Assembly: GCA_000175855.1 (NCBI GenBank)
Contig: ACYB01000011.1
Coordinates: forward strand, 1-32,000
DNA length: 32,000 bases
Reading direction: 5' to 3'
DNA from: Raphidiopsis brookii D9
GTDB taxonomy: Bacteria; Cyanobacteriota; Cyanobacteriia; Cyanobacteriales; Nostocaceae
Shown: positions 13,400 through 26,706 of the stretch, in pieces
Layout of the letters: every line of letters starts with the position of its first letter
Position numbering within the stretch: the first letter of the stretch is position 1
Notes under the pieces: model-generated
Seen by the model: only the letters and a program-made list of their open reading frames with translations
Databases searched by the model: none
What the model was told of the DNA's origin: nothing
Translations under genes and position numbers: made by a program

Positions 13400-14383
13400 T
13401 TATTTCATAAATAATTTGAATAAATATTTACTAGCTTTAGGAAGGAAGTATTTAAGTAAATTGGGGAGTAGGAGCATAAATAAGGAATTTGCGATCAATA
13501 AAACCGAATCACGGGAAAAAACATTGATACTAATTACCAAGTTAGTTCCTACCCAAACCAACCAGCTAATAACAGGTTCTATAAATTTATCTACAGATTT
13601 ATTTTTTATCCTCACCAGTAATTTTTTCAATTGACTGATAATTAGTAAACCCAATGTTCCCAAAACTAAAAATATTATTATCCAACCCAAGGTTGAGATT
13701 AATATTGATAACCACAATGACATTCCGGAGGTGATTTTCCAGGTTATAACAGCTGCGGGGAATATAGCAGACACAAACCAATACACTGAATTCAAATTAC
13801 TTCTTAGACATTTGGTGACTTGTTCTGTTAGCCAATAATGGGAATTGACAATTTTAGAAGCATCCCCATTGCTTATTAAGTTTTGGGAGATTTTTTGGAT
13901 GATATCACCGTCAAATAGTATGGTGCTTTGCATCATAATATTTTCAGTTGATTGATAATAGGAGTTAAAGGTAAAACCACATTGAAATTTAATGGTTTTA
14001 TTGCGGTTCTGACTGGTAAGTATTTTCCAAGTTTTTACTAGAAAGAAATATATTAAAACTGATAACTGGGGATGTGGATAAATATCCGCACTCTTATCAT
14101 AATTCTCATCCCTATCAACAGCGGAATCAAAAATAGAATAGTACCATAAATTCAATAACAGTCCCTTAGGTATATCTAGAGATATACCCTGCAATTTTAA
14201 TTGTGCAATTTTTTCCAAAATAGTTCTATTTAAATAAAAACTATATGCTCCTTCCTCAGCTTTTACTTCTAAGCAACAATTATCCTGTCCATTATTTTGG
14301 GGAAATTGCCAGGGAAATAAAAAACTATAATTCAAACTATAATTCAGGTCTGGTTTTTGGTAATTTTCTTGGAATATATTCAC
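13400..14383 (-). CDS. Hypothetical membrane protein: ~200-aa soluble N-terminal region with a DGDI...His module, then about four predicted TM helices
   Basis: A 327-aa ORF, last of three co-oriented genes. Hydrophobic stretches are SVYWFVSAIFPAAVITW, MSLWLSILISTLGWIIIFLVLGTLGLLII, VISWLVWVGTNLVISINVF and VLLIANSLFMLLLPNLL. I recognise no known domain. Confidence 0.6.
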   Translation of the reverse strand: MNIFQENYQKPDLNYSLNYSFLFPWQFPQNNGQDNCCLEVKAEEGAYSFYLNRTILEKIAQLKLQGISLDIPKGLLLNLWYYSIFDSAVDRDENYDKSADIYPHPQLSVLIYFFLVKTWKILTSQNRNKTIKFQCGFTFNSYYQSTENIMMQSTILFDGDIIQKISQNLISNGDASKIVNSHYWLTEQVTKCLRSNLNSVYWFVSAIFPAAVITWKITSGMSLWLSILISTLGWIIIFLVLGTLGLLIISQLKKLLVRIKNKSVDKFIEPVISWLVWVGTNLVISINVFSRDSVLLIANSLFMLLLPNLLKYFLPKASKYLFKLFMK

Positions 14384-14421
14384 GCATCACCCACCCAAAC
14401 AAACTACTAACATATCTAACT

Positions 14422-15201
14422 TCAAGAAGCAATACCTTTGATAAAATTAATCAAAAAGTCTATCACCTCACGCCATTGTTTTTCTCCAGATACTACTCCA
14501 TCATTATGAACCTTCATAATTAGATCTTTGTCAGACTCCTTCAAACCAAATAACTCGCGGTGATAACGAGTAATAATGTCCCCATCTAATTGTATGATGG
14601 TTTGAGCATAGATGGTATCCACATTTTCACTGGTGACATCACCACCATCCAGTGCTGCTTTCATTTCTGAAACCTTCCGCAAGGTCAATACAAACTTATC
14701 ATCAGTCACTAGTTCGGCAATTTTCTGATAATTTTCTACCTGACTTTCCTGGTCAAAAGGTGAGGGTAAAACTATTTGGGATGCTTTTGTGCCATCGGAA
14801 TTTAAGCGATTTTCATCTATATATTTCAGACGACTACGATACCCCTGCACCACCTGAGCTTTGGGTGATGGAGACTCTAATTCCTTGGTTAAAAAGGTAT
14901 AAATATATTCTCTTTCCAATTGCAAGAATATATTAATATAACGTTCTTCTAACTCGGACACAATGTTCTTACTGTCAAAATAATTCGGTTCACTTATGGC
15001 ATAAATATTATAGTATGATTGCCAGGGGTTGAATTTGGAACCGCTAATATTATTTACAACAATTGTATTTACCTCTAAGCTTGTAATGTCCCTAACTATT
15101 ACGCCCACGGTATCAACAAATTTGCCCAGTAGGTCTTTAGCTCTCCCTGCTGTACCTTGATTTGGCTGAGATTCTAAAGAATTTGAGTCTTTTGCTAACA
15201 T
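14422..15201 (-). CDS. Hypothetical soluble protein, larger paralogue of the upstream 162-aa protein (DGDI...His module)
   Basis: A 259-aa ORF, 26 bp downstream of the previous gene. It shares two sequence blocks with the 162-aa protein (see findings). I recognise no known domain. Confidence 0.6.
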   Translation of the reverse strand: MLAKDSNSLESQPNQGTAGRAKDLLGKFVDTVGVIVRDITSLEVNTIVVNNISGSKFNPWQSYYNIYAISEPNYFDSKNIVSELEERYINIFLQLEREYIYTFLTKELESPSPKAQVVQGYRSRLKYIDENRLNSDGTKASQIVLPSPFDQESQVENYQKIAELVTDDKFVLTLRKVSEMKAALDGGDVTSENVDTIYAQTIIQLDGDIITRYHRELFGLKESDKDLIMKVHNDGVVSGEKQWREVIDFLINFIKGIAS

Positions 15202-15227
15202 AATGATTTCTCTTAGTTGGATAAATG

Positions 15228-15716
15228 CTAGGGAAGTTTTGCTAATTGGGAACTTTGGCTATTTTGACTTTGTTTAACCATTGACATCAAAATCTCACCC
15301 AGTTTTTGCACGCTTTCTATATTTTTTTGAATTATTTCCCGACCTTCTTGAACTTGGCTTAAATGAAATTCCCTCAGTTCTGTATATGGACCACTACCAA
15401 TGAAGCTAGTACCTATTTCATTTCTAATGTCACCATCAACCAGGTTAATACGGGTTACCATTTTGTTCTCTGGTTTGGTACTGGAAGCATTGTCATTATA
15501 TGATGACTCATCAATAACAGAAGTTTCAATTTGTAACTCAATTACATCGGCAAGGACTGTCTTAACAATGTCCATGACACTACTTAAGTTCACACTATTG
15601 CTCTTAAAATCTAAATTATTAAGCTGGCTTTGGAACTTATTTACTTTTGGTGACTCGACCTTTTCAATTTGCACTGTTTGGATTTCTAGGTTGGCGGAGA
15701 AGTTGGTTTCAGGCAT
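15228..15716 (-). CDS. Hypothetical soluble protein (DGDI...His module), first gene of a three-gene operon
   Basis: A 162-aa ORF with an ATG start at 15716-15714. I recognise no known domain. Confidence 0.55.
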   Translation of the reverse strand: MPETNFSANLEIQTVQIEKVESPKVNKFQSQLNNLDFKSNSVNLSSVMDIVKTVLADVIELQIETSVIDESSYNDNASSTKPENKMVTRINLVDGDIRNEIGTSFIGSGPYTELREFHLSQVQEGREIIQKNIESVQKLGEILMSMVKQSQNSQSSQLAKLP

Positions 15717-15942
15717 ACTATGTTTTAGGTACTATGTTTTAGATGCTATGTAAACAGGTGTGGATAGGAATGTATGGGTTTCCATTAGCACCACACCAGG
15801 GCATTATTGACTACTTGAGTTTTTTTTTCCATTGTTTTTAAAAAAACTTAACAATGATAGAATGATAGTAAACAATGATAAAGATGACCAGCAAAAAAGT
15901 ATCGGACTGGTTATGTTCTAAACCCATTGTTATGAGTAGGAG

Positions 15943-26544: not shown

Positions 26545-26555
26545 TAGATACTAAT

Positions 26556-26637
26556 GCGGATGTGGCGGAATTGGCAGACGCGCTAGATTTAGGTTCTAGT
26601 TCCGACAGGAGTGAAGGTTCAAGTCCTTTCATCCGCA
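26556..26637 (+). tRNA. tRNA-Leu, anticodon UAG
   Basis: Folded by hand. The acceptor stem is GCGGATG/CATCCGC with discriminator A. The anticodon stem is CTAGA/TCTAG with loop TTTAGGT (anticodon TAG). It has a long variable arm (TCC-GACA-GGA) and a T arm GAAGG-TTCAAGT-CCTTT. CCA is not encoded. Confidence 0.9.
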
Positions 26638-26706
26638 TTATATAGGCCCGTGCACAATCTATTCAGTGCTTACAAGGTAATAGAAACATAACGGTTTAGT
26701 AGTTTT

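Follow-up and report, generated by a model that had tools for sequence, protein, structure and literature searches.

A conserved cyanobacterial gene cassette encodes two soluble proteins and one membrane protein with a common DGDI-His module

Within a 32,000-nucleotide stretch of the genome of Raphidiopsis brookii D9 (assembly GCA_000175855.1, contig ACYB01000011.1, positions 1 to 32,000 of the forward strand, referred to below as the window), three consecutive minus-strand genes, here named A, B, and C, constitute an undescribed gene set that is widely conserved in cyanobacteria and whose common protein module has no detectable known relative. The encoded proteins, two of them soluble and the third equipped with a membrane domain, are likely, though not proven, to be diverged paralogs of common descent. 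We tentatively favor, at somewhat less than even odds, the interpretation that A, B, and C form a membrane-anchored hetero-oligomeric scaffold or hub. An initial annotation of this DNA had proposed three closely spaced minus-strand open reading frames (ORFs) of 162, 259, and 327 amino acids. The ORF list and the sequence agreed with it exactly in coordinates, lengths, and strand as well as in the intergenic gaps of 26 bp between A and B (15202-15227) and 38 bp between B and C (14384-14421). The three genes, with the evidence by which each was characterized, are as follows:

15228..15716, minus strand: gene A, 162 amino acids, soluble, acidic (isoelectric point [pI] 4.8), the smallest form of the module (ORF, homologs, conservation, AlphaFold)
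14422..15201, minus strand: gene B, 259 amino acids, soluble, acidic (pI 4.9), core as in A (ORF, homologs, conservation, AlphaFold)
13400..14383, minus strand: gene C, 327 amino acids, GTG start, N-domain followed by a membrane domain (ORF, homologs, hidden Markov model [HMM], hydropathy)

Hydropathy and composition revealed no hydrophobic segment in A or B, both with a pI of about 4.8.

That the three genes travel together became apparent when family HMMs for A, B, and C were applied to the ORFs in the best 80 loci of 183 species. C was found immediately downstream of B in every one of these loci (80/80), and the complete A-B-C arrangement, in the same order and on the same strand, was present in 74 of them, with one further locus ending at a contig edge. 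In most Nostoc loci, the B and C ORFs abut or overlap. Homologs were detected for B in 77 and for A in 58 clusters, from Nostocales, Leptolyngbyaceae, Kastovskya, and Spirulina, and a genome scan identified relatives of B in no fewer than 183 cyanobacterial species, of which those that carry names are all filamentous. A word-indexed search returned only 4 close relatives of C, and C orthologs were recovered by HMM on the loci. Among the members that carry names, no relatives outside cyanobacteria were detectable. The gene A product shares 98% identity with a protein of Raphidiopsis sp. BLCC-F218. One Nostoc subclade (L016, L064, L068, L072, and L077) retains only B and C as neighbors and carries, upstream in place of A, a divergent gene of ~264 amino acids with a hydrophobic N-terminus, and in Nostoc sp. 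ChiSLP02 A is encoded elsewhere, the A/B homologs P0128 and P0058 being located on different contigs.

All three proteins contain the tetrapeptide DGDI, which occurs three times in the window ORFs of at least 100 amino acids, once in each cassette protein. The codons of this motif were found where the initial annotation had placed them, and those of a His 21 (A), 23 (B), and 21 (C) residues after its Ile at the spacing given there:

15426..15437, minus strand: DGDI of A, residues 94-97, at a predicted beta-hairpin turn
14575..14586, minus strand: DGDI of B, residues 206-209, at a predicted beta-hairpin turn
13901..13912, minus strand: DGDI of C, residues 158-161
15363..15365, minus strand: His118 of A, invariant (94/94 sequences)
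14506..14508, minus strand: His232 of B, invariant (107/107 sequences)
13838..13840, minus strand: His182 of C, present in 81/83 sequences and invariant in the taxonomically diverse alignment A6

The signature common to the three families is a hydrophobic strand, followed by x-G-D-I and by a His 21-23 residues further on. In the A family, N91, G95, N99, F105, Y111, E113, F117, H118, L119, Q121, N132, and E134 are invariant and D96 and I97 nearly so, with D, N, or S at the first Asp of the motif. The B family is the strictest at this position, D206 being invariant together with E43, N45, T46, Q200, T201, G207, I209, I210, R212, H232, Q242, and W243, and D208 being present in 106 of the 107 sequences. 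In the C family, G159 is invariant, D160 is found in 80 of 83 sequences (E in the other 3) and I161 in 76 of 83, alongside H182 at the frequency listed above; the first Asp is replaced by Y, H, or N in most Nostoc members and is D in Raphidiopsis, Sphaerospermopsis, and all non-Nostocales members. Conservation in orthologs therefore holds for G-D-I and the His, which are invariant or nearly so in the three families, and does not extend to the first Asp of DGDI, which varies.

BLASTP was almost blind to the similarity between the three proteins. It gave no significant match for the A-B and A-C pairs and a weak one over the DGDI block for B-C (E=0.021). Relatedness is visible only at the level of profiles and predicted structure. 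Profile-profile alignment with hhalign paired the same N-proximal blocks of A and B that had been noticed in the initial annotation (E=0.017-0.019):

15510..15578, minus strand: N-proximal helix-strand block of A (VMDIVKTVLADVIELQIETSVID), residues 47-69, aligned by hhalign to the block of B
15052..15120, minus strand: N-proximal helix-strand block of B (FVDTVGVIVRDITSLEVNTIVVN), residues 28-50, aligned by hhalign to the block of A

With a taxonomically broader C alignment, hhalign placed the DGDI-to-His blocks in register for B versus C (E=8e-4, probability 24%) and for A versus C (E=0.016). The AlphaFold model of A comprises a helix (44-57), two strands (60-66 and 85-91), a turn at D94-G95, a further strand (97-101), and a long helix (112-159) containing the invariant H118. 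The model of B comprises a helix (17-38), a strand (41-47), strands 197-204 and 209-213 about a D206-G207 turn, and a helix (222-258) containing the invariant H232. Both models thus have the core order alpha-beta-beta-turn-beta-alpha, and B contains an additional, mostly helical insertion of about 150 residues (48-196) after the first strand. These predicted secondary-structure maps, together with the weak profile alignments, fit the earlier view of B as a paralog of A with an insertion of ~130 amino acids.

In C, residues 1-198 form an N-domain, predicted to be cytoplasmic, which includes DGDII and H182 and is directly followed by the membrane domain:

13448..13789, minus strand: membrane domain of C, residues 199-312, about 3-4 hydrophobic helices (Kyte-Doolittle, loop charges)

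At a Kyte-Doolittle threshold of 1.6 over 19 residues, a long hydrophobic segment (219-257) and overlapping segments (271-312) were detected, and residues 199-215 were read by eye as an additional weaker helix. The resulting prediction is of about 3-4 transmembrane (TM) helices in the window protein. The Lys/Arg content of the loop 251-269 (six residues) and of the C-terminal tail 309-327 (five residues) points to an N-in/C-in topology, in which the module would lie on the cytoplasmic side immediately ahead of the first helix.

Outside Nostocales, the cassette can contain a fourth gene. Of the five non-Nostocales loci read, four (from Spirulina major, Kastovskya adunca, and two metagenomic contigs) have a gene that we call A' between A and B, giving the order A (136-151 amino acids), A' (485-1041 amino acids), B, and C (235-270 amino acids). 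The fifth locus (L087) has a gene of 237 amino acids upstream of B and no long A'. The A' genes are found at the following positions of their loci:

L081:6436-7893
L083:4054-5982
L085:4968-6878
L086:3785-6910

The N-terminus of A' is a clear A-domain (E=5e-29 to 6e-40 with the A profile), which continues into a tail of about 350-900 residues, and longer still in the wider family, that is acidic, proline rich, of low complexity, and predicted to be disordered. An exhaustive search with the A-family profile yielded 669 representative clusters carrying an A-domain; most of the 150 listed among them are 400-1400 amino acids long, with the A-domain at residues about 8-120. In 119 tails, Asp and Glu account for 28%, Pro for 10%, and Lys and Arg for 2.6% of the residues, at a net charge of about -0.25 per residue, and a motif of the PhixxPhiF[G/D/E] type was counted 103 times versus 37 +/- 6 times in shuffled sequences, with a concentration in the last third. 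Visual inspection also showed recurrent [DN]PF motifs, and many tails end in a KRVPPPPPPPSRFPNQNN-like (poly-Pro-RFPNQNN) sequence. The named members with an A-domain, a limited sample, are all filamentous cyanobacteria (Funiculus, Trichocoleus, Lusitaniella, Oscillatoria, and Elainellaceae, in addition to the taxa given above). The A profile also matched P0240, a repeat protein of 1724 amino acids, in 11 stretches through its repeated 'ELEVTTWFVKFQDG' segment; this match is probably spurious and the protein an unrelated, non-cyanobacterial one. In Raphidiopsis and other Nostocales, only the A-B-C core is present at the cassette locus.

These findings are compatible with a model in which A, B, and C represent a vertically inherited operon for diverged paralogous subunits, each built on one undescribed module that would consist of an amphipathic helix, a strand, a beta-hairpin with a tight x-G-D-I turn, and a long helix starting at the invariant His. 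In C, the module would be positioned at the cytoplasmic membrane face, directly before the TM helices, and the acidic soluble proteins A and B might dock onto C through pairing of the strands and helices of like modules, giving rise to a membrane-anchored hetero-oligomer. In the four-gene form, A' would add a multivalent acidic disordered arm with short hydrophobic motifs, and we infer that such a complex might serve as a membrane-tethered scaffold or hub by which other components are recruited or spaced. It is the acidic, disordered, motif-bearing tail of A' that makes this role, rather than that of an enzyme, appear the most likely one. Several points weigh against such a hub. The window organism is devoid of A' at the cassette locus, and the hub argument is hence borrowed from other lineages. 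The confidence of the AlphaFold models is moderate, with a predicted local distance difference test (pLDDT) score of 71 for A and 74 for B and a predicted template modeling (pTM) score of 0.59. The profile-profile probabilities are low (3-24%), which leaves common descent of A, B, and C plausible and not proven. Moreover, the universally conserved Asp and His could equally mark a metal or catalytic site.

The last point leads to the main alternative, which we regard as unlikely, in which A, B, and C form a metal-binding or catalytic membrane complex, with the Asp of G-D-I and the His composing a site at the subunit interfaces and serving, for example, in metal handling or in redox or hydrolytic chemistry at the membrane. 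In favor of such a site, the residues that are invariant or nearly so across the three families include a carboxylate and an imidazole separated by a fixed distance, and further invariant polar residues are present in A (N91, N99, E113, Q121, and R126) and in B (E43, N45, D185, Q200, R212, Q242, and W243). However, no similarity to known metalloproteins, enzyme families, or folds was detected, the proteins have neither a Cys motif nor a second His motif, and x-G-D-I is located at a predicted hairpin turn, a place where D/N-G is commonly purely structural. The paralog A' with its acidic tail also points to scaffolding instead.

It is still less probable, in our estimate, that C is a small channel- or transporter-like protein with A and B as cytoplasmic regulatory or gating subunits. 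The tight coupling of the three genes and the 3-4 TM helices of C, with the module abutting the first of them, would be in keeping with this idea. Yet the TM domain is the least conserved part of C and contains few conserved polar residues, non-Nostocales C proteins are shorter and show about two hydrophobic stretches by eye, and no transporter family was matched. Owing to this poor conservation and the shortening outside Nostocales, an anchor fits the TM part better than a pore.

We consider it very improbable that A, B, and C are unrelated proteins of mere neighbors, with a motif that arose by convergence or chance. The nonsignificant BLASTP results for A-B and A-C and hhalign probabilities of no more than 24% are what would be expected in this case. 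Against it stand the family-wide occurrence of the motif with its His at near-constant distance, the composition-based chance of about 3e-8 that DGDI would occur once in each of the three proteins, the same predicted secondary structure around the motif in A and B, and the linkage, kept in at least 74 loci.

No characterized domain had been recognized in any of the three proteins, and database searches confirmed this. Pfam-A and NCBIfam gave no match near the cutoff for A, B, or C (best 16.9 bits versus a cutoff of 23), and Pfam gave none for 17 C-family members, 28 B-family members, and 9 long A' proteins. Searches of PDB sequences by hmmsearch with the A, B, and C family profiles yielded best E values of 0.05-1.7. 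In PHROGs, the best match (E=0.017) was to families of unknown function, and PADLOC returned only marginal unrelated matches, to a Type I specificity subunit (E=6e-4, over a helical stretch) and to CARF (E=0.017). With the AlphaFold models of A and B, Foldseek found no match in the PDB at E<=0.001, and the B model found nothing significant in BFVD. All named homologs are called "hypothetical protein" by their source, except for one JGI entry labeled ClpS adaptor, located on a 1.4-kb contig and lacking a precomputed Pfam domain. A full-text literature search retrieved no description of such a cassette. A relationship to the gas-vesicle protein GvpA was considered and rejected on the grounds of the hydrophilic, acidic character of A, the lack of gvp genes in the vicinity, and the absence of PF00741 from the Pfam matches.

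The top Foldseek matches of A in the PDB were YbaB (1pug) and a YbaB-like protein (1ybx), whose alpha-beta3-alpha tweezer fold (a helix, a three-stranded antiparallel sheet, and a long C-terminal helix in about 100 residues) we take to be like that predicted for A. A nucleoid-associated, DNA-binding module of the YbaB/EbfC type nevertheless seems hardly credible to us, considering that these matches are nonsignificant (E about 0.45, TM scores 0.25/0.36), that the YbaB family (PF02575) was absent from the Pfam matches at E<=1, and that A and B are acidic and one cassette paralog is membrane anchored.

The cassette converges on a glcF-like gene (Fer4 and CCG domains) and diverges from a class IV aminotransferase gene (PF01063, E=3e-38), beyond which ftsH is located; domain matches to both flanks corroborate the antiparallel placement reported previously. 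Across Nostocales, the aminotransferase gene and ftsH adjoin the cassette in 69 of the 80 loci, which identifies it as a vertically inherited chromosomal locus, whereas glcF does not. In the nearest other genus, represented by an Anabaena aphanizomenioides LEGE 00250 contig of Sphaerospermopsis type (L088), A-B-C is kept and C is separated from the glcF-like gene by an inserted acetate kinase gene, indicating that the glcF neighborhood is conserved only locally. The aminotransferase and ftsH flanks are limited to Nostocales, and no neighbor gene is conserved across orders. Genes for Psb34, PsbP, and Maf immediately precede A on the same strand in L083 and L086 (Kastovskya and one metagenomic contig) and were not seen beside the cassette in other lineages, and a gene with an EVE domain flanks the cassette in Spirulina. 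The cassette could not be assigned to locus tags of Anabaena PCC 7120 through the ftsH neighborhood (all3642/all3643, alr3644-46), as alr3646-49 turned out to be devBCA-like and all3643 could not be tied to the cassette.

The guanine-plus-cytosine (GC) content of the window cassette is 0.342 versus 0.403 in its surroundings. A comparable dip (0.32-0.33 versus 0.40-0.43) was found in three Nostocales loci and the Leptolyngbyaceae-labeled L009, and the dips amount to 6-10 GC points overall; the loci compared were L001, L009, L020, and L047 versus L081 and L083. The Spirulina and Kastovskya cassettes show no dip. Since the dip is common to all orthologous Nostocales cassettes checked, it represents a conserved property of these genes and not a sign of recent transfer. 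The notion of a mobile antiphage defense or toxin-antitoxin-like cassette between housekeeping genes, to which the antiparallel position between unrelated genes, the GC content below that of the flanks, and the missing annotation might have pointed, is therefore largely refuted and has next to no chance of being correct, given also the conserved position beside the aminotransferase gene and ftsH, the lack of significant PADLOC or PHROG matches and of relatives on viral contigs, and the absence of a nuclease, ATPase, or other effector domain.

The divergent intergenic region upstream of A presumably contains the cassette promoter:

15717..15942, no strand assigned: intergenic region between A and the class IV aminotransferase gene, presumed cassette promoter region

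This region is poorly conserved across genera. Its -35/-10-like sites are of consensus level only and not above shuffle expectation, promoter- and terminator-like sites are no more frequent than in shuffled sequence, and an Rfam scan of the region gave chance-level matches only. Upstream of A, at window positions 15853-15881 on the minus strand, are two exact tandem copies of CTATCATT plus TTATCATT. As a candidate conserved element, the CTATCATT repeats were rejected; they are not conserved in Sphaerospermopsis, and the window as a whole shows no enrichment of this word. Elsewhere in the window, a tRNA scan identified a single tRNA-Leu gene (26555-26638) and nothing else notable.

Polar hubs of the PopZ type combine a small oligomerizing domain with a long acidic, Pro/Glu-rich disordered region that carries short interaction motifs. 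A' resembles them in its folded domain and its acidic, motif-bearing disordered tail, which would be a functional analogy and not homology: the domain order is reversed, with the folded domain at the N-terminus, and there is no sequence relation. In the cassette, such a hub would in addition be tethered by a dedicated membrane paralog. PilN and PilO are co-operonic diverged paralogs that hetero-oligomerize at the inner membrane, an arrangement analogous to that proposed for A, B, and C. Unlike in that pair, only C has TM helices, which are C-terminal, and no similarity in sequence or fold to PilN or PilO was detected.

The genes that distinguish filamentous, multicellular cyanobacteria from unicellular ones are little known, and the majority of the candidates are "hypothetical proteins" (PMC2821919). 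Hypothetical genes of a lineage-specific "filament core," such as CyDiv/All2320, are conserved in filamentous cyanobacteria, including the streamlined Raphidiopsis/Cylindrospermopsis genomes (Stucken et al. 2010, PMC2821919; PMC4748335). A, B, and C are likewise uncharacterized and present in filamentous cyanobacteria including streamlined Raphidiopsis, but they were not matched to any locus tag in that list, and their filamentous pattern is that of the named members seen. It is tempting to speculate, although we rate this as rather doubtful, that the cassette encodes a hub specific to filamentous cyanobacteria, in which C anchors, A and B build, and the tail of A' recruits partners, and which underlies a filamentous trait such as the organization of the septum or cell-cell junction, trichome integrity, or the gliding apparatus. 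The Nostocales would then have lost or relocated the tail subunit A'.

The cassette is conserved from Spirulina and Leptolyngbya-like lineages to Nostocales and survives in the streamlined Raphidiopsis genome. Should its conserved residues mark a metal site or an enzyme instead of a scaffold, it would represent a new catalytic family. If A, B, and C do form a membrane hub, they would constitute a new component of cyanobacterial cell organization and a new protein fold family, and the three genes would offer a tractable knockout target in Anabaena or Nostoc.

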